Made by a program: the position numbers and the translations under genes. Below the pieces are notes generated by a model. That model made no database searches, was not told where the DNA came from, and saw only the letters and a program-made list of their open reading frames with translations. This document shows, piece after piece, positions 1 to 13,281 of a DNA stretch of 64,000 nt (its first letter is position 1; each line of letters begins with the position of its first letter). The DNA is taken from NCBI RefSeq assembly GCF_003018235.1, contig NZ_CP027437.1; one strand, given 5' to 3'. The stretch comes from Escherichia coli (GTDB lineage: Bacteria > Pseudomonadota > Gammaproteobacteria > Enterobacterales > Enterobacteriaceae).

Positions 1-158
1 ATTTGTTCTACAATACCATATGACGCCCGATATTACGCCATACATAGAATATGACTACCTTGACCGTCAGGGTGTTTACAACGGCAGAGATAATTTATCG
101 GAAAACAGTTATCGCATTGGTGTGTCATTTAAACTGTAGTAGACAGGAGACAGTCACA

Positions 159-1265
159 ATGAATAAAACAATAACGGCGCTTGCTATCATAATGGCTTCA
201 TTTGCCGCAAACGCGTCTGTATTACCGGAAACTCCTGTGCCATTTAAAAGTGGTACCGGAGCAATTGATAACGACACTGTCTACATTGGTTTAGGTAGCG
301 CAGGTACAGCATGGTACAAGCTGGATACACAGGCCAAAGATAAAAAATGGACAGCGTTAGCTGCATTCCCTGGTGGGCCGAGAGATCAAGCAACCTCTGC
401 ATTTATTGATGGTAATCTGTATGTGTTTGGCGGCATTGGCAAAAACAGCGAGGGCTTGACTCAGGTATTTAATGACGTACACAAATACAACCCCAAAACC
501 AATAGCTGGGTTAAATTGATGTCGCACGCGCCGATGGGCATGGCGGGCCATGTGACTTTTGTACACAACGGCAAGGCTTATGTTACTGGCGGTGTTAACC
601 AGAATATCTTCAATGGCTATTTTGAAGATCTCAACGAGGCTGGAAAAGATTCAACCGCTATAGATAAAATCAACGCCCACTATTTTGACAAAAAAGCAGA
701 AGATTATTTCTTCAATAAGTTTCTGTTGTCTTTTGATCCCTCAACACAGCAATGGAGTTACGCTGGCGAATCTCCCTGGTACGGAACGGCTGGTGCGGCG
801 GTTGTGAATAAAGGTGATAAAACCTGGCTTATTAATGGCGAAGCCAAACCAGGATTGCGAACGGATGCCGTATTTGAACTTGATTTCACCGGTAATAATT
901 TAAAATGGAATAAGCTTGCTCCCGTCTCATCACCAGATGGCGTCGCTGGCGGTTTTGCAGGCATGAGCAATGACTCACTGATATTTGCCGGAGGGGCCGG
1001 ATTCAAAGGGTCACGGGAAAATTACCAAAACGGTAAGAACTATGCGCATGAAGGCCTGAAAAAATCATATAGCACTGATATTCATCTTTGGCATAACGGG
1101 AAATGGGATAAATCTGGTGAATTATCGCAAGGTCGGGCCTACGGAGTATCATTGCCCTGGAATAATAGTTTATTAATTATTGGCGGTGAAACTGCAGGCG
1201 GCAAAGCGGTGACGGATTCAGTTTTAATTTCTGTGAAGGATAATAAAGTCACAGTACAAAACTAA
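159..1265 (+). CDS. nanM: N-acetylneuraminate epimerase (Kelch-repeat, YjhT/NanM)
   Basis: ORF translation from MNKTITALAIIMASFAANA (signal peptide) matches NanM along its length; SD aggaga about 9 nt upstream of ATG at 159; the ORF-track start at 51 is an upstream extension. Confidence 0.9.
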   Translation: MNKTITALAIIMASFAANASVLPETPVPFKSGTGAIDNDTVYIGLGSAGTAWYKLDTQAKDKKWTALAAFPGGPRDQATSAFIDGNLYVFGGIGKNSEGLTQVFNDVHKYNPKTNSWVKLMSHAPMGMAGHVTFVHNGKAYVTGGVNQNIFNGYFEDLNEAGKDSTAIDKINAHYFDKKAEDYFFNKFLLSFDPSTQQWSYAGESPWYGTAGAAVVNKGDKTWLINGEAKPGLRTDAVFELDFTGNNLKWNKLAPVSSPDGVAGGFAGMSNDSLIFAGGAGFKGSRENYQNGKNYAHEGLKKSYSTDIHLWHNGKWDKSGELSQGRAYGVSLPWNNSLLIIGGETAGGKAVTDSVLISVKDNKVTVQN

Positions 1266-1329
1266 CGCTTCAGGGTCCCAGTAAAGGGGCCCTGCTATCA
1301 ATTTGTCATTTGTATTACGCGAAAATTAT

Positions 1330-2310
1330 ATGAACGCAATAATATCGCCCGATTATTACTATGTTCTTACCGTTGCTGGTCAGTCTAATGCCATGGCGTA
1401 TGGCGAAGGACTGCCATTACCGGACAGGGAAGATGCGCCTCATCCCAGAATTAAACAATTAGCGAGATTTGCGCATACGCATCCCGGAGGCCCGTCATGT
1501 CACTTTAACGACATTATTCCACTGACTCACTGCCCACACGATGTTCAGGATATGCAGGGTTATCACCATCCTCTGGCAACGAATCATCAAACACAGTACG
1601 GCACCGTTGGCCAGGCACTGCATATTGCACGGAAATTACTGCCCTTTATTCCTGATAACGCAGGGGTTCTCATCGTTCCGTGTTGCCGTGGCGGATCGGC
1701 TTTTACCGCGGGCAGCGAAGGGAAATATTCAGAACGGCACGGAGCCAGCCATGATGCTTGTCGTTGGGGAACGGATACTCCGCTATACCAGGATTTAGTC
1801 AGCAGAACGCGAGCCGCACTGGCAAAAAATCCGCAGAACAAATTCCTCGGCGTATGCTGGATGCAAGGCGAATTTGACTTAATGACCAGTGACTACGCGT
1901 CACACCCTCAACACTTTAATCATATGGTTGAAGCCTTTCGTAGGGAGCTAAAACAATACCATTCTCAGCTTAATAATATTACTGACGCACCGTGGTTTTG
2001 CGGCGATACCACCTGGTACTGGAAAGAAAATTTCCCTCATGCGTATGAAGCTATTTATGGCAATTATCAAAATAATGTTTTAGCCAATATTATTTTCGTC
2101 GACTTCCAGCAACAAGGTGCAAGAGGACTGACGAACGCGCCTGATGAAGATCCAGACGATTTAAGCACGGGATATTACGGTTCAGCGTACCGGTCACCGG
2201 AGAACTGGACGACGGCACTGCGAAGCAGTCATTTCAGCGCGGCAGCCCGTCGGGGGATTATTTCTGACAGGTTTGTAGAAGCAATTTTGCAGTTTTGGCG
2301 CGAAAGGTGA
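1330..2310 (+). CDS. nanS: 9-O-acetyl-N-acetylneuraminate esterase
   Basis: Translation from MNAIISPDYYYVLTVAGQSNA matches NanS (YjhS); follows nanM in the same orientation as in the nanCMS operon. Confidence 0.88.
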   Translation: MNAIISPDYYYVLTVAGQSNAMAYGEGLPLPDREDAPHPRIKQLARFAHTHPGGPSCHFNDIIPLTHCPHDVQDMQGYHHPLATNHQTQYGTVGQALHIARKLLPFIPDNAGVLIVPCCRGGSAFTAGSEGKYSERHGASHDACRWGTDTPLYQDLVSRTRAALAKNPQNKFLGVCWMQGEFDLMTSDYASHPQHFNHMVEAFRRELKQYHSQLNNITDAPWFCGDTTWYWKENFPHAYEAIYGNYQNNVLANIIFVDFQQQGARGLTNAPDEDPDDLSTGYYGSAYRSPENWTTALRSSHFSAAARRGIISDRFVEAILQFWRER

Positions 2311-2317
2311 GCGTTCA

Positions 2318-2518
2318 TTAATTTGATTTATTTGCATCCATTAGCGCTTTTAACTGCTCCGGCGTAAACGGTGGTTTGCGTCGGTGCAACATCGCATGGC
2401 AATTAGGGCACACAGGAAGCAAATCATTAACTGGATCCAGCTGGTAATCCTCTTTAATGGCTGAAAGCGGCACCAGGTGATGCACATTAAGCAATTTCAG
2501 AACCGCATGCTCATACAT
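2318..2518 (-). pseudogene. Short HNH-endonuclease-like ORF (66 aa), probably a truncated remnant
   Basis: Translation carries HH..P....N....CPNCH..H spacing typical of HNH nuclease cores but is far shorter than standalone HNH enzymes. Confidence 0.35.
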
Positions 2519-2655: not shown

Positions 2656-3264
2656 TTAACGATGTATCAGAACAATCTTGCGCCGGGAGAATAGCGTTTC
2701 CGCAGACAGCTGGAATTTATATTCCGCGGCCTTCAGCTTTCGCGATTTAAGCATTTTCATCGTGATACCCCTTATTTTCCCTGACTCAACCTGTCTCTTG
2801 ATTTCGCCGGTGCTCAGCATGAGCTGCTTTTGCAAAATCGACAGCAGGCTGACCTGAAACGAACGGGAAATCCTGACGCTAACCTTGACCCATTTGCCGG
2901 GAGAAAGGCTGGCTAACCACTGCTCCTGAATGCGAAAATCAGGCCGACCCGATAGCTCTGCGTTGTTCCGCTTCAGCATCGCGATATCACAGGAAAAATG
3001 TTGAACCGTGGCTGCATCGTTGCTCATCAGCCGGTTATGAAGTTCGCGGTCAATTTTGCTGACGTGCAGGCGCGAAAATAGGGAGATATTCCAGGTGTAA
3101 TCACAGTGTGTGCATTTATAGATACTCCACACGTCCAGCACCTTCTTTTGCGAATTAATCCGAAATGCACCTGATGGCGTGAAGTCCCGTTTAATGTTGC
3201 ATGAAGGGCATCGCTTCGCAATGCGCTGATACCCCACGGGCGTGACGGTCCATGTAACTTTCAT
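2656..3264 (-). CDS. Hypothetical protein with N-terminal CxxC...CxxC zinc ribbon and basic C-terminal region (202 aa)
   Basis: Long ORF with two CxxC pairs (CPSC, CTHC) and a K/R-rich C-terminus; no confident family assignment. Confidence 0.5.
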   Translation of the reverse strand: MKVTWTVTPVGYQRIAKRCPSCNIKRDFTPSGAFRINSQKKVLDVWSIYKCTHCDYTWNISLFSRLHVSKIDRELHNRLMSNDAATVQHFSCDIAMLKRNNAELSGRPDFRIQEQWLASLSPGKWVKVSVRISRSFQVSLLSILQKQLMLSTGEIKRQVESGKIRGITMKMLKSRKLKAAEYKFQLSAETLFSRRKIVLIHR

Positions 3265-3559
3265 AACCTACCTTTTTTAACCCATACAAAACCGGATCCG
3301 TACTGAACGGACCATGGATGTTTATGTATGAAAAATATTTAAGAGATATTTTTCAGAGGGTTAAAAAAAGATTTCCAACTATGCAATCCTGTCGGTGAGC
3401 AAAGAGATATAGCGAGACTATCAAAACGGCAATTATTGGGTATATGAGTTCAATCAATATTCATGATGGTTATGGCTTGTTCTATTGATCTGACACATTA
3501 AACACGGCGCATTAATTTTGTATGTTTTATGAACAACCCAACAACAAAAGGAGCGCGAT

Positions 3560-3811
3560 ATGACACAGCACGAACGGTTTTGTCAGGCCTGCGGAATGCC
3601 GATGTCCGCACCTGATGCGCAGGGGAGTAGCGATAAATACTGTGCATACTGCAGCGATAGCAACGGCAATCTTAAACCCTGGGAAGAGGCGGTATCAGGC
3701 TTGGCCAGCTTCCTTGATTCCTGGCAAAAAGTCGGTCCAGAAGAAGCACAGAAGCGTGCAAAACGTTATCTGACGGCAATGCCTGCCTGGGCTCATAAAG
3801 CGGACGAGTGA
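3560..3811 (+). CDS. Small zinc-ribbon domain protein (83 aa)
   Basis: CQAC...CAYC motif; strong SD aaaggag 8 nt upstream of ATG. Confidence 0.5.
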   Translation: MTQHERFCQACGMPMSAPDAQGSSDKYCAYCSDSNGNLKPWEEAVSGLASFLDSWQKVGPEEAQKRAKRYLTAMPAWAHKADE

Positions 3812-3875: not shown

Positions 3876-4268
3876 ATGTTTTCTCACATTATGCTTGGAA
3901 CCAACAACCTGCCACGCGCCATTGCATTCTACGATCCGTTGATGGATATGCTGGGGTATCCCCGCGGCGGCAGGAAGAGGAGATCGCATGGTGGGGCGTT
4001 TTCAACGGTAATAACACTACGGCACTGGGTATCAGTAGGCCATTTGATAAACAGGTTGCCACGACCCGAAATGGAGTGATGGTCGCCCTGATTGCGCGTT
4101 CTGCCGAACACATCCAGCAAGTTTCATGTGCTAGCTTTAAATCACGGTGGCACTGACGAGGGAGCACCTGGCCAGCGTCCGCATTACGGCGAAGGGTTCT
4201 ACAGCGCTTACGTCAGAGACACCGATGGCAACAAGCTGGCTTACGTTTATTACACCGCACAATCCTGA
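3876..4268 (+). pseudogene. VOC/glyoxalase-family gene disrupted by frameshifts
   Basis: N-terminus MFSHIMLGTNNLPRAIAFYDPLMDMLGY in frame 1 (SD aaggaga upstream); the rest of a VOC-like protein (ALGISRPFDKQVATTRNGVMVAL... and GGTDEGAPGQRPHYGEGFYSAYVRDTDGNKLAYVYY) continues in the other two frames, implying at least two frameshifts. Confidence 0.5.
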
Positions 4269-4512
4269 GAACGATAAAGCGGGGGCCTCAGCGCCCCCAC
4301 CTGAAACTAAACCGATCCCGCAGATGTCAATGAGCGTTGAACGAGTTGATAAATGCCGAGATGTCTGACTGTTTTTACGCCAGAACTCCATGGTGTGACA
4401 ACCATACACATACTCCCTTCTTGACACCTTTAAACCATTTAACCGCATGCCTCTGTCTGCCCTGCAGGGACGGCTGATGCCTGTGTGTTGTCTGGCGGTA
4501 AGGAACAATACT

Positions 4513-4674
4513 ATGTACGCAAAATCCTTTATCGCTCTCGACGGGAATGGTCGTCTGACCGGTGCCCGTACTGCGCAGACCGCCCCTTACGATCGTTATA
4601 CCTGCCACCTCTGCGGTAGCGTGCTGCAATACCATCCTGAATACATCACCGAACGCCCGTGCTTTGAACAGTAA
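4513..4674 (+). CDS. Small hypothetical ORF (53 aa, MYAKSFIALDGNGRL...)
   Basis: ATG preceded by aagga-like SD; contains CHLCGS motif; function unknown, could be a remnant. Confidence 0.25.
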   Translation: MYAKSFIALDGNGRLTGARTAQTAPYDRYTCHLCGSVLQYHPEYITERPCFEQ

Positions 4675-5266
4675 CCAACACACTGACAGAGGGCGGCGAA
4701 AATGCTTTATGCAAATCTTGATGCAAAGGCAGCCAGACGAATTCGTAAGTTACGCTTTTACGTGGCAGATACTCAAAGCAGACTGGCATTGTAGCGACGA
4801 TTGCCACGGTGAACGCTATTGTATGGCATGTAGTACCTGAGACTTCAGCCGCCCAGTAGATATAGCATCATGAAAAAACTGAAATGCTTTCTTGCCAACA
4901 ACTCACTGAGCTAGTATGCCTCCACCGATGTAACAATTAGAGCAAGCGTCAAAGTGCGAAACTGCCCTCACGTAGCTGCAAGTTAACACCAGGAAATCCT
5001 GGTTCAAACACGACCAGCTCTATGTTAGCGGCAAGCAATCGTTGAACTAAACGCATATGCAGCCGGAGATGAAAGTTAGGAAAAAAGCAGAGGCTGATAA
5101 GAATTATGCACGTTGAGCTGGGATCGTAATACCCCACTTAAAATGTACAAGGGGAGTAGTCTAATGATGTTAAATACGAACCTTCAGTATTGTTCATTCA
5201 CCAATTTTCCCATATTCTCTCATCATTAATATTCTCTGCCGAATTTTATAGGGCTAACTCGCTGAA

Positions 5267-5708: not shown

Positions 5709-8246
5709 ATGATAAATGACCATGAAGAACTAGAACTTGCTAAAGCTCAGGCAAAAGAAATATGGAAGATCCTTGATTATGTTCGAGGAGCATCACCTAT
5801 ATCTAATTATCGCTCATTAGCGTATTCAATCTTCTTCGTACGCTATCTTCAATCCAATACAGGTCAGCATTTTGAGGCAGAAAGGTTCGACTCTTTTAAT
5901 GTCATCGCCCAGTATTCCTACGATCTTGTAAACTATGCCGTTCAACTTGGATTGATTCATAGCGACGTATCTAAATTCTTAATTTATTATTTAGAAAACA
6001 CACTCCGTTCATTTGTCAATATTGATGAGTCTTTTGTTCGTTATGCAATTAGAGATGGTCTACTCAATAAAACCCCTGCAATAGCGTCGCTTTCTTTATC
6101 AGAACTGGATTTACTTTTTGCCGAGAATGAAGGTAAGTCAGGAGGTGAGTTTTATACCCCTAGAGACGTCAACTTATTGGTTAAAATATTAGGATTGAGT
6201 TATCAACCAAAGTCAATATGTGACCCATTTGCAGGTGCTGGAAACACAGCATTTCCTTTTGCCAATACTGGTATTGAAAAAGTTAGGATTGATACTCAAG
6301 AAATTAATAGAGATGCTTACTTTAAACTAGTAATAAGTAGAGTCATCAGGAAAATAGAAGGTCGAGACTATTTCGGCGATTCCCTATCACAACCATTATA
6401 TCAAGAAAATAAATATGATCTGATAGTTTCTTTCCCACCTTTTGGCATGAAAATTCCTAAAGCCACTCGAAATAATATTTACTATAAAACAAGTAATAAG
6501 TGGCTGGATATTACTGAAATCTTGCCAGAAAGTAGAAGTGATTGGTTTATAACATTATCAATGCTTCCAGCCCTTTCTGAGGGGGGTAAGATACTAGTAG
6601 GTATGTCACTTGGGGCTTTGACAAGAGCAGGCTCTGAGGCAAAGGTTCGTGAGTATTTAGTCTCTCGCGGAATTATCGAACAAGTAATTCTTTTACCTAA
6701 AAATATTTATTACTCTACGGCTATCTCAACTGTACTTCTTGTCCTCAACTCAGGAACAAGTAACATAAATAACAGAAGTATTAAATTTGTAGATGCTTCA
6801 CTGTTTTACGAGCCTGCCCGTGGTCGAAACACCCTCACAACAAAAAATATAAATGAGATCGTAGAGGCTTGTCATAAAGATGGCCGATTTAGTATTAGTT
6901 CATCTCATACCCAAATAGCAAACAGAGACTTTAATTTAGATCCGTCTCTTTATGTACGTAAAGATCTCAAAATCAGTGAGGTTTCTTTAAAAAATTTTAG
7001 AGGATACTCTGACTTTAAAGTTTCGATACATCCTTCTTTAAATGTATTGGTTGGTGAGAACGGCGTCGGGAAAACTTCGATATTAGAAGCATTAGCATGT
7101 GGCCTTGGTCCTTTCCTTACTGCTATGCCTGATGCTAAAGGAAAACTGATAAAAAAATCAGATATCCATATAAGTTCAAAAGGAATCGCAAATTATGCTC
7201 GAATATCGATTGAAACAACATCAAGTTTAAGTTGGGATCTTGTGGCAAAGGGGGTTGATGTTTCCGAGCCCCCTAAGATAGGAACATCAGCATTAACTAG
7301 CTACGCTACTCATCTTGTAGATAGTCAGTCTGAATATCCACTCATTGCTTATTATGGGACTAACCGTGCTCTTACTTCTACCAGTTCTAAAGTTGCAATA
7401 AATCCATTCGAGAAAGAAAATCGTGGGGAAGGTTATGACTTTGCTTTAGATGCTAAAGTTAACTACGGCATCTTAAAGAACTGGTTTTCAAAAATAGAGG
7501 TTGATGAGCTTCGAAAACGTGATGAACTAAAAGACCATAAATTCATTCATCCGGCTAAGAGACTTGTTTCAGAGGCTGTTTACCAGATTGTTGATCGAGC
7601 TACATGCTTGGAGTTCGACAAAAATAGTAACGATGTTATGGTTCATTGGAAAAATGAGCAGGGAGAGTGCGTAAAGCTTACATTGGAACAACTAAGTGAA
7701 GGGTATAGAAATATGGTATCCCTGACCATTGACCTAGTGAGGCGTGCTTATTTACTTAATCCTACCAAACCGAAACCGCTAACAGTTAATGGGATCGTTT
7801 TAATTGATGAAATTGAACTTCACTTGCACCCTAGATGGCAGCAAAAGATTTTAAATGATCTTACTAAGCTGTTTAAGAATATTCAGTTTATTGTCACGAC
7901 ACATAGTCCTCAAGTCTTAACAACAATCAAAGCCGATTGTATCCGTATTGTTTCCGTCAATGCTAACGAAGCAAAATTAGTGACAGGAACTACTACTTAC
8001 GGTTCTGAAAGCTCAAGAATGTTGGAAGATGTTTTAGGTGGTAACAATCGCGCCCAACATCTTGATATTGTTAAAAAACTAAACCGTTATACAGAGTTAG
8101 TAGAGGCCGACAAATGGGATACCGATGAGGCATTAGAACTCAAAAAAGAGTTATATAAATGGGGTGGTCAGACAGAAGACGAGCTTCAAAAATTAGAAAC
8201 TGATATTCGAATTCGCGAGTTCGAGCGTGGCAATGAAAAAGATTAA
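5709..8246 (+). CDS. Fusion protein: N-terminal gamma-class N6-adenine methyltransferase-like domain plus C-terminal ABC-type ATPase (Septu PtuA-like)
   Basis: MTase-like motifs in order X-I-IV: EFYTPRDV (about aa 147), DPFAGAGN (about aa 172), SFPPFG (about aa 240). ATPase motifs: Walker A GENGVGKTS (about aa 449), Walker B VLIDEIELHLHP (about aa 695), TTHSP (about aa 730). AT-rich coding sequence. Confidence 0.75.
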   Translation: MINDHEELELAKAQAKEIWKILDYVRGASPISNYRSLAYSIFFVRYLQSNTGQHFEAERFDSFNVIAQYSYDLVNYAVQLGLIHSDVSKFLIYYLENTLRSFVNIDESFVRYAIRDGLLNKTPAIASLSLSELDLLFAENEGKSGGEFYTPRDVNLLVKILGLSYQPKSICDPFAGAGNTAFPFANTGIEKVRIDTQEINRDAYFKLVISRVIRKIEGRDYFGDSLSQPLYQENKYDLIVSFPPFGMKIPKATRNNIYYKTSNKWLDITEILPESRSDWFITLSMLPALSEGGKILVGMSLGALTRAGSEAKVREYLVSRGIIEQVILLPKNIYYSTAISTVLLVLNSGTSNINNRSIKFVDASLFYEPARGRNTLTTKNINEIVEACHKDGRFSISSSHTQIANRDFNLDPSLYVRKDLKISEVSLKNFRGYSDFKVSIHPSLNVLVGENGVGKTSILEALACGLGPFLTAMPDAKGKLIKKSDIHISSKGIANYARISIETTSSLSWDLVAKGVDVSEPPKIGTSALTSYATHLVDSQSEYPLIAYYGTNRALTSTSSKVAINPFEKENRGEGYDFALDAKVNYGILKNWFSKIEVDELRKRDELKDHKFIHPAKRLVSEAVYQIVDRATCLEFDKNSNDVMVHWKNEQGECVKLTLEQLSEGYRNMVSLTIDLVRRAYLLNPTKPKPLTVNGIVLIDEIELHLHPRWQQKILNDLTKLFKNIQFIVTTHSPQVLTTIKADCIRIVSVNANEAKLVTGTTTYGSESSRMLEDVLGGNNRAQHLDIVKKLNRYTELVEADKWDTDEALELKKELYKWGGQTEDELQKLETDIRIREFERGNEKD

Positions 8247-9021
8247 TAAGCTAGATGAGCCAAATCGGCTTGGTGTGTTCAAGGCTACTCATCCTAATGC
8301 TTTGTGGGAGAGGGATAAAAACTCAATTGAAGAGGCTTTCCGTTGTTGCATTGCCAGATATCAAGAAACTCTACAACAATTACGTACGGACCAAGGTAAT
8401 TTATGTGCATATTGTGAACAGGATTTAATGTCTGGAACTAATGGGGCATTAGATGACTGCCGTATTGAGCATTTTCATCCGAAATCTAAACGTGAACAGG
8501 GAGAACCTAATTGGGCTTTGGAATGGAGCAATTTGTTAGTTGTTTGCTGTGGCGGAAATCAAAGTAAAGTTGTTAATCCTGGGCAAAGATTTGATGCTGA
8601 TCCCAAAAATTACTCTTGCGATGTACCAAAGAGTGACAAAATTTTAGATACCATTATATTAAATCCACTTAATTTACCTGAATTAAATATCTGGAAGTTT
8701 CATCGTTCTTCGGGGCAAATTTCCGTAAATGAAGATTCCTGTTTAGAATTTGGTATAAGTGTTGAAATGGCACACCAAACAATTAAAGAATTGAATTTAA
8801 ATTCCCCTCGATTAATTAGATTTCGAAAGGCTATTCTAAATAATCTCAACATTTTAATAACAGAAAGGCTGAAGAAGGGACAAACGGTAGAGCAAGCTGT
8901 TAGATTTATTGCCATATCACTCTTTAGAAAAAATGGAGCAGGTGATTGGCCCTCTTTTTTTAGTGCAACACGATATTATTTAGGTCAGCAGGCTGAGCTT
9001 GTTTTAGCCCAACCTATTTAA
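8227..9021 (+). CDS. HNH nuclease (Septu PtuB-like)
   Basis: Motif CAYCEQD...DDCRIEHFHPKS...WSNLLVVCCGGN; start (GTG 8227 or ATG 8233) overlaps the stop of the upstream ATPase gene, indicating an operon. Confidence 0.7.
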   Translation: MAMKKINKLDEPNRLGVFKATHPNALWERDKNSIEEAFRCCIARYQETLQQLRTDQGNLCAYCEQDLMSGTNGALDDCRIEHFHPKSKREQGEPNWALEWSNLLVVCCGGNQSKVVNPGQRFDADPKNYSCDVPKSDKILDTIILNPLNLPELNIWKFHRSSGQISVNEDSCLEFGISVEMAHQTIKELNLNSPRLIRFRKAILNNLNILITERLKKGQTVEQAVRFIAISLFRKNGAGDWPSFFSATRYYLGQQAELVLAQPI

Positions 9022-13196: not shown

Positions 13197-13281
13197 TGGT
13201 GCCGAAGGCCGGACTCGAACCGGCACGTATTTCTACGGTTGATTTTGAATCAACTGCGTCTACCGATTTCGCCACTTCGGC
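13197..13281 (-). tRNA. leuX: tRNA-Leu (CAA)
   Basis: Reverse complement reads GCCGAAGTGGCGAAATCGGTAGACGCAGTTGATTCAAAATCAACCGTAGAAATACGTGCCGGTTCGAGTCCGGCCTTCGGCACCA, with cloverleaf features and a long variable arm. Confidence 0.9.

Follow-up and report, generated by a model that had tools for sequence, protein, structure and literature searches.

A candidate cis-regulatory RNA leader upstream of a DUF1062 gene with a predicted S4-like domain in the leuX island of Escherichia coli

Control of gene expression by the translation of a short leader is well described for ermC, cat-86 and cmlA, where in leader-peptide translation attenuation a ribosome held on the leader exposes the Shine-Dalgarno sequence. 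Ribosomal protein S4, Hsp15 and the pseudouridine synthases RsuA, RluB and RluD share the S4 domain as the module by which they bind RNA; ribosomal protein S4 represses its own operon, and the binding of S4-domain proteins to their own leaders is an established precedent. Two bacterial protein families are considered here against this background, DUF1062 (COG4332), listed as 'uncharacterized protein conserved in bacteria', and Zn_ribbon_2, listed as 'putative zinc ribbon domain', a family without a solved relative or a described function. No functional study of DUF1062, COG4332, PF12674 (Zn_ribbon_2) or the Firmicute neighbour family CD3324 was found in the searchable literature, in which DUF1062 is represented by two incidental table entries. 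One member of each family is encoded head-to-head near the start of a window of 64,000 nucleotides (nt) of Escherichia coli DNA (NCBI RefSeq assembly GCF_003018235.1, contig NZ_CP027437.1). The DUF1062 gene of this window is preceded by a conserved RNA leader that includes a mini-open reading frame (mini-ORF), and the C-terminus of its product is predicted to be related to the S4 domain. The features are collected in Table 1.

Table 1. Features at and around the DUF1062/Zn_ribbon_2 locus (window positions; aa, amino acids; ORF, open reading frame; GC, guanine plus cytosine content)
Feature	Coordinates	Strand	Remarks
nanM	51-1265		window start
nanS	1303-2310		window start
Chimeric ORF (predicted)	2318-2518	-	66 aa; codons 1-11 (~2486-2518) match the start of a YbaK/EbsC-like tRNA_edit gene, the rest a C-terminal remnant of an HNH nuclease
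DUF1062/COG4332 gene	2656-3264	-	202 aa, ATG start; Pfam PF06353
Spacer between start codons	3265-3559	.	295 bp, 35.6% GC
Helix P1, 3' arm GGGUUAAAAAAGG	3271-3283	-	holds the DUF1062 Shine-Dalgarno sequence AAGG (3271-3274), 6 nt before the ATG (3262-3264)
Hairpin P3, GGUCCGU-UCAGU-ACGGAUC (3295-3313), then CGGUUUUGUA (U-run)	3285-3313	-	terminator-like; flagged by terminator scan
Hairpin P2, UGAAAAAUAU - loop - AUAUUUUUCA	3329-3355	-	10 pairs, 98% of cells paired, one compensatory change (UA to GC)
Helix P1, 5' arm CUUUUUUUAACCC	3358-3370	-	overlaps last codons and stop of the mini-ORF
Mini-ORF TTG GAA ATC TTT TTT TAA (MEIFF, stop)	3361-3378	-	Shine-Dalgarno sequence AGGA at 3387-3390, 8-nt spacing
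Putative extended -10 element TGaTAGTCT	3415-3423	-	for the DUF1062 leader transcript; from conservation
Zn_ribbon_2 gene	3560-3811	+	83 aa; Pfam PF12674; first gene of a small operon
VOC/glyoxalase-family gene	3876-4268	+	downstream of Zn_ribbon_2; frameshifted, ORFs 3876-4079 and 4092-4268, two in-frame stops
'Putative zinc ribbon protein' gene	4447-4840	+	frameshifted (RefSeq, strain PapM-32-1)
Septu-like defence pair	5709-9021	+	main cargo of the island
leuX, tRNA-Leu(CAA)	13197-13281	-	

An initial reading of the letters alone, referred to below as the sequence-only reading, had described the spacer between the two start codons as an AT-rich divergent promoter region of about 300 bp. Length and composition agree with this description, with a window average of 49.7% GC and 49-54% in the two genes, but over half of the spacer, the DUF1062-proximal ~160 bp, is a conserved and apparently structured 5' leader of the 202-aa gene. 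Across all enterobacterial loci the 130 nt upstream of the DUF1062 start retain 75-98% identity, while in the same comparisons the DUF1062 protein goes down to 53% identity and synonymous sites are saturated (synonymous divergence, dS, 1.8-2.8 or not computable). A covariance model built on the leader recovers it in 33 of 33 enterobacterial DUF1062 loci with 125-159 bits, whereas neither the remainder of the window nor any of 60 loci from Photorhabdus, Pseudomonas, Sodalis and Firmicutes gives a match. DUF1062 itself is carried by 18 of 5426 complete E. coli genomes, with full length in 13 of the 18, and the leader was found in 13 of the 5426, adjoining full-length DUF1062 in 13/13. Rfam covariance models gave no match at E<=1 on either strand between positions 2300 and 4500, and the leader, unannotated and absent from Rfam, is considered a candidate cis-regulatory RNA. 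Remnants of it are seen in the Klebsiella pneumoniae plasmid pKpN01-SIL and about 30 other Klebsiella plasmids, which hold the leader and the first ~13 codons of DUF1062 only, the rest being cut by IS5075; these remnants adjoin a LacI-family regulator and a sugar ATP-binding cassette transporter.

The RNAalifold consensus for the sense strand consists of three helices, P1 to P3, in which the Shine-Dalgarno sequence of DUF1062 lies within the 3' arm of the closing helix P1. Overall, the structure comprises 31 pairs and 775 pair cells, 98.2% of which are standard pairs as compared with 36-65% with the partners slid. Compensatory change is found at four pairs: P1 (14 pairs, 97.7% of cells paired) has two such pairs, including a UA to CG change in Trabulsiella, and P3 (7 pairs, 99% of cells paired) shows CG to UA compensatory changes with many G-U intermediates. 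As 82 cells are G-U, the antisense strand would pair at 88% only, and the 130-nt region behaves in these alignments as a strand-specific RNA structure. Further upstream, the motif TGnTAnnCT is present in all 21 enterobacterial sequences aligned and would fit an extended -10 promoter for the leader transcript. No -35 element was found for this putative promoter, and a consensus sigma-70 scan reported no promoter in the spacer and did not flag the TGaTAGTCT element.

The mini-ORF is present in 33 of 33 enterobacterial leaders. Its TTG start has changed to CTG or TTA in nine leaders, and in 9/9 of them the preceding codon is GTG; further changes are the synonymous replacements of ATC by ATA or ATT and of TTT by TTC, besides GAA to GAC. 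We infer that the mini-ORF is translated. Another ORF in the leader, of 12 codons (ATGGTCCGT...), was discarded, as its ATG is not conserved. No upstream ORF was found ahead of DUF1062 in Photorhabdus, Pseudomonas and Sodalis; the Photorhabdus genes are preceded by a conserved palindrome-rich region with GATCTGA repeats and, at three loci, also by a long tandem array of the heptamer CTCTGTT further upstream.

By its sequence, the leader possesses the elements of the ermC, cat-86 and cmlA systems, namely a short upstream ORF with its own Shine-Dalgarno sequence and start, the 3' part of which pairs with the Shine-Dalgarno sequence of the regulated gene. A ribosome on the mini-ORF would be the obvious way to open P1. 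In contrast to these systems, ~85 nt with two further hairpins separate the two P1 strands, the leader ORF has just five codons, and DUF1062 is no known resistance gene and has no known inducer.

A comparable topology is observed in the Firmicutes. In at least 15 of ~50 Firmicute DUF1062 loci the gene is preceded by a leader ORF with the pattern MK(K/R)xxx(N/Y)PP(F/V/I)..., whose proline codons show third-position variation. A hairpin is predicted between the 3' end of this leader ORF and the DUF1062 Shine-Dalgarno sequence, and compensatory changes occur at 5 of 8 consensus pairs. Two unrelated leader designs in two phyla thus appear to mask the DUF1062 Shine-Dalgarno sequence independently with the end of an upstream ORF. 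Upstream of this arrangement a Mor-like gene of the 'CD3324 family' (NF040785, PF08765; 91-93 aa) precedes DUF1062 in 32 of ~50 Firmicute loci, and the gap between the two genes contains a terminator and a conserved promoter-like TGCTACAAT. A gene resembling prolyl-tRNA synthetase, as recognised from its N-terminal sequence only, lies convergent ~60 nt downstream of DUF1062 at four related Bacillota loci; as the genomes are related, this neighbourhood probably reflects a single event. The Pro-Pro leaders and an occasional YbaK/ProX-like partner, described below, hint weakly at proline decoding.

The leader could also work otherwise, either as an RNA thermometer of the fourU-like type or as an autoregulatory site for the S4-like protein, with the mini-ORF being incidental. 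In line with such a mode of action are the pairing of the U-run in P1 with AAAAAAGG, the conservation of the mini-ORF that is inseparable from the conservation of P1, and the precedent of S4-domain proteins that bind their own leaders. Folding in silico speaks against the thermometer: the Shine-Dalgarno sequence of DUF1062 is paired with a probability of >=0.9 at 20-42 C and simple thermal melting is therefore unlikely, and with an unpaired probability of its bases of <=0.09 at 42 C and <=0.16 at 50 C, which leaves it >=84% paired even at the highest temperature, fourU-type melting is not seen. As the Shine-Dalgarno sequence stays paired across 20-50 C, the thermometer is disfavoured. For either mode, the GTG compensation for the lost TTG is unexplained without translation, and the Firmicute relatives have clearly coding leader ORFs with the same topology. 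We regard an action of the leader by these other modes as quite improbable.

The protein encoded behind the leader is the 202-aa minus-strand product with two CxxC pairs and a basic tail already recognized in the sequence-only reading. Its cysteines are located at positions 19/22 (CPSC) and 51/54 (CTHC), the tail reads SRRKIVLIHR, and 37 lysines and arginines as opposed to 14 aspartates and glutamates result in an isoelectric point of 10.4. It is a full-length member of DUF1062 (138.1 bits, E 4e-40, gathering cut-off 23), which in length, in its cysteines and in the aromatic motif does not differ from the family: the residues invariant throughout PF06353 (four Cys, W5, F34, R35, N37, D44, W46, Y49, N59, R65 and N82) are all present, and its length is within the range of ~190-210 aa. 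In an alignment of 72 relatives the four cysteines and the motif FRxN..D.W.IY.C..C..TWN are invariant or near-invariant. The family comprises 796 clusters at 50% identity (E<=1e-3) and is found across Proteobacteria and Firmicutes; full-length homologues number in the hundreds for DUF1062 as for Zn_ribbon_2. The Pfam DUF1062 model spans residues 36-166 only and thus misses the first CxxC pair and most of the S4-like domain. The AlphaFold2 model (mean predicted local distance difference test score, pLDDT, 94.4) together with the alignment points to three parts, with a four-Cys zinc-ribbon beta domain at the N-terminus, a linker of helices in the middle and an S4-like domain at the C-terminus (residues ~136-190), and the protein can thus be described as a strongly basic protein that, as predicted, joins a four-Cys zinc ribbon with an S4-like C-terminus. 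Among the Photorhabdus relatives, a 495-518 aa MFS transporter gene starts within ~40 bp after DUF1062 at 8/8 loci.

Assignment of the C-terminus to the S4-like domains is based on several profile comparisons. Pfam S4 (PF01479) matches the C-terminus of 18 of the 72 relatives; each match begins with model position 1 at the RLD motif (RLDxxL...LSR), and one is over the gathering score (25.3 vs 22.8 bits). When a profile of the C-terminal region was searched against the Protein Data Bank (PDB), the best-ranking entries were S4 domains, namely those of ribosomal protein S4, RsuA, RluD and RluB. Furthermore, in a profile-to-profile alignment with hhalign the same region matches five E. coli S4 domains (Hsp15, also named HslR, RpsD, RsuA, RluB and RluD, taken from the annotated K-12 genome) with 96.7%, E 3.9e-10 over 56 columns, compared with 0.1% for an unrelated control profile. 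The helix-helix-strand layout of this part of the AlphaFold2 model was noted as well. A three-dimensional search with the DUF1062 model found no significant match and a weak fold resemblance to Cren7 and the CarD N-domain. Compared with the known S4 proteins, the domain of DUF1062 is fused to a zinc-ribbon beta domain rather than to a synthase or ribosomal-protein body, and the enterobacterial clade is without the signature residues RLD and SR. On this basis DUF1062 would bind structured RNA (rRNA, tRNA or mRNA), with which its isoelectric point is consistent.

The reading that we favour, and to which we assign an even chance of being correct as a whole, is that of an RNA-binding DUF1062 protein the translation of which is gated by ribosome occupancy of the leader mini-ORF. 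The DUF1062 mRNA would start at the extended -10 promoter and carry a leader of ~145 nt, in which P1 would pair the DUF1062 Shine-Dalgarno sequence with the 3'-terminal part of the MEIFF mini-ORF, stop codon included. If a ribosome sat or stalled on the mini-ORF, P1 would be melted and the Shine-Dalgarno sequence set free, following the logic of erm and cat. DUF1062 would then be made only when translation is perturbed and may act in some translation-related stress response.

Several observations weigh against this reading. Covariation within the leader is thin because the sequences are closely related; four pairs have changed on both sides, a count that was reached in 27 of 500 shuffles. The codons of the mini-ORF overlap P1, whereby its conservation is confounded with that of the structure, and the terminator-like hairpin P3 has no assigned role in the model. 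Relatives in Photorhabdus, Pseudomonas and Sodalis do not have the leader, so that this type of control is confined to one lineage. With respect to the protein, the window sequence alone finds no match to Pfam S4 at E<=1, and its clade has SLL and ST in place of the canonical RLD and SR of S4, so that RNA contacts may differ.

The 83-aa plus-strand ORF with CQAC and CAYC that had been read from the sequence is equally real. It belongs to Zn_ribbon_2 (41.1 bits, E 2.9e-10, gathering cut-off 22.5, matching from residue 7), and has its four family cysteines at positions 8, 11, 28 and 31 and an AAGGAG ribosome-binding site (RBS) 7 nt before the ATG. C8, C11, C28 and C31 as well as P75, A76 and W77 are invariant, the latter as part of a conserved MPAWA end. 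The AlphaFold2 model (pLDDT 92.4) shows a four-Cys zinc knuckle followed by three helices, for which no structural neighbour was found in the PDB. Zn_ribbon_2 is a small acidic protein composed of a zinc knuckle and three helices that heads its own operon, the second gene of which varies between VOC, dienelactone hydrolase and DUF1349. RefSeq lists a 69-aa form (WP_281431222.1) in two near-identical E. coli genomes that starts at an internal ATG at 3602 and drops the first CxxC pair; the AAGGAG ribosome-binding site belongs to the 83-aa form, which nearly all homologues match in length and which is the one annotated in strain 14EC033, and the RefSeq start of the gene appears to be truncated. 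More generally, small genes of 'detoxification-type' recur in the enterobacterial neighbourhoods of DUF1062 and Zn_ribbon_2, among them VOC, GNAT, DUF1349, dienelactone hydrolase, DJ-1/PfpI, MerR-GyrI-like regulators, MdtM and TopAI/YjhX with YjhP.

The domain searches that had been proposed for both proteins thus place them in catalogued accessory families rather than in well-known housekeeping families. Besides these assignments, an NCBIfam search returned sub-threshold zinc-ribbon noise only (VdcD, 4Cys prefix), and a PDB sequence search with both proteins gave nothing significant. Hidden Markov models of PADLOC and PHROGs for anti-phage defence and phage families matched neither protein; no true phage record carries either gene, as matches in the phage collection were misfiled bacterial contigs. 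No support was found for smaller ORFs that overlap the two genes.

Whether the two genes travel together was assessed in 80 DUF1062 loci with one genome per species, 20 of them enterobacterial and 60 from other bacteria. The head-to-head pair with a spacer of 290-295 bp recurs in E. coli, Citrobacter, Kluyvera, Trabulsiella and Serratia in at least three genomic contexts. The Citrobacter amalonaticus allele of Zn_ribbon_2, for instance, is seen in 714 contigs 292 bp from DUF1062 at a chromosomal, non-island locus with a dienelactone hydrolase gene next to it, and the Serratia allele 295 bp from DUF1062 in an AlpA/YagK island. Joint occurrence, named as a check in the sequence-only reading, is in this respect real, but it is not obligate. 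Zn_ribbon_2 is divergent at the same distance in 7 of the 20 enterobacterial loci (one copy frameshifted), displaced by 3.7 kb in one further locus and missing in 12, and it adjoins DUF1062 in none of the 60 loci outside Enterobacterales. Decayed Zn_ribbon_2 stands beside intact DUF1062 in K. pneumoniae, Morganella, E. coli GPEC617, Kluyvera and Enterobacter hormaechei. Vice versa, the Phytobacter allele, the E. coli 14EC033 allele and distant relatives of Zn_ribbon_2 occur without adjoining DUF1062. The pair is an old enterobacterial arrangement that is often inherited together, with Zn_ribbon_2 dispensable for DUF1062.

These distributions bear on the proposal of a regulator pair, in which DUF1062 would be a DNA-binding transcription factor that controls the divergent Zn_ribbon_2 operon from sites in the spacer by a C-terminal helix-turn-helix. 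The divergent geometry with its 290-295 bp spacer has been kept across genera and contexts, and conserved boxes, TTGATCT and GTATNTTT, precede Zn_ribbon_2. Indeed, the Zn_ribbon_2-proximal half of the spacer (3424-3559) holds the invariant boxes TTGATCT and GTAT(A/G)TTT besides the AAGGAG Shine-Dalgarno sequence, and as the two boxes are ~30 nt apart, too far for a standard -35/-10 promoter, they may mark an activator-dependent promoter. Weak HTH_17 matches to the same C-terminal helices in 7 of the 72 relatives, the above-mentioned weak resemblance to Cren7 and the CarD N-domain and the Mor-like transcription activator as the conserved Firmicute neighbour are further points in favour. On the other hand, S4 is by far the better match to these helices considering 18 against 7 relatives, one of them over the gathering score, and the hhalign result; in most lineages Zn_ribbon_2 is absent or decayed beside intact DUF1062 and leader, Zn_ribbon_2 operons exist without DUF1062, and the most conserved part of the spacer behaves as a strand-specific RNA structure. 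Nothing shows that either protein regulates the other, and we consider a regulator pair unlikely.

Both genes are located in the leuX island, the stretch from nanS to leuX, between nanS and the leuX integrase arm, as anticipated by the designation 'island-encoded', and are accessory cargo in the decayed distal arm of this island. A search for att-like direct repeats marking the left end of the island found none. Near-identical copies of the island occur in E. coli CFSAN018748 and PapM-32-1, with an annotated integrase, nucleoid-associated protein, N6-methylase and HNH protein, and there the two genes are annotated as 'DUF1062 domain-containing protein' and 'zinc ribbon domain-containing protein'. 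The main cargo of the island looks like a Septu-type defence pair. In its 845-aa protein an N-terminal type I-like N6-methyltransferase (~137-418) is joined to a PtuA ATPase (420-843; E 5e-106), an unusual fusion; the HNH protein PtuB (E 2e-100) comes next and overlaps it.

The alternative offered in the sequence-only reading, that the two genes are unrelated remnants, does not hold, because both are intact and under purifying selection, with ratios of nonsynonymous to synonymous divergence (dN/dS) against orthologues of 0.07-0.25 for DUF1062 and 0.06-0.12 for Zn_ribbon_2. The true remnants are, judged by their sequences, the neighbouring genes. In K. pneumoniae, E. hormaechei, Enterobacter sp. 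and E. coli PapM-32-1 a gene for a 175-aa tRNA_edit protein follows DUF1062 on the same strand at a distance of 138 bp. This intact YbaK-like partner starts with MNEHAVLKLLNELD, matches Pfam tRNA_edit with 104 bits and is related to the YbaK/EbsC/ProX trans-editing deacylases (PF04073), with a score of 38 bits that is far under the cut-off of 153 of the YbaK equivalog. The window has no intact tRNA_edit gene at this position; homology to the PapM-32-1 gene ends in the alignment at ~2484 after 11 codons, which are fused to an HNH remnant (24 bits in Pfam) that adjoins nanS. The equivalent of this ORF is named 'HNH endonuclease, incomplete' in RefSeq, an annotation that would need correction to a chimera. 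The VOC gene, named 'VOC family protein, frameshifted' in RefSeq, has decayed as well, so that the usual downstream partner of each gene is dead here, the YbaK-like one by deletion and the VOC one by frameshift. A third gene, for a putative zinc ribbon protein, is frameshifted too.

Decay of the surroundings raises the possibility that the pair is inert cargo in this strain, intact by recent arrival and without contribution as the operon partners are gone. The YbaK-like gene cut to 11 codons, the frameshifted VOC and third zinc-ribbon genes and the HNH remnant would agree with inert cargo, as would the occurrence of DUF1062 in just 18 of the 5426 E. coli genomes and the 98-100% identity of the window alleles to copies in Klebsiella and other E. 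coli strains. Yet the two ORFs with their ribosome-binding sites are undamaged, the leader is complete, and selection across the families is clearly purifying. DUF1062 and its leader also occur mostly without the YbaK-like gene, which is present at 2 of the 20 species-level enterobacterial loci, and hence do not depend on it. Inertness of the pair in this strain is decidedly doubtful.

The favoured reading of a ribosome-gated, RNA-binding DUF1062 protein can be extended to the family. DUF1062 might constitute a new family of translation-stress factors that bind stalled ribosomes or their tRNA and are induced by stalling, on Pro-Pro peptides in Firmicutes and on the mini-ORF in Enterobacterales; a YbaK/ProX-like aminoacyl-tRNA deacylase would be their partner in some enterobacterial islands. 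In this full form the proposal is speculative and rather unlikely to be correct. If true, it would add to ribosome rescue, proline-decoding quality control or antibiotic tolerance a branch that is horizontally mobile and has so far gone unrecognised. Leader ORFs that mask the ribosome-binding site in two phyla are a pattern typical of genes responsive to the state of the ribosome such as resistance genes and rescue factors. The two genes as such are ordinary members of catalogued families; what is added is the S4-like assignment, at the strength of profile comparison, and the unannotated leader with its mini-ORF, which make DUF1062 experimentally approachable in a family whose carriers include E. 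coli SE11, K. pneumoniae ATCC 13883 and C. difficile.

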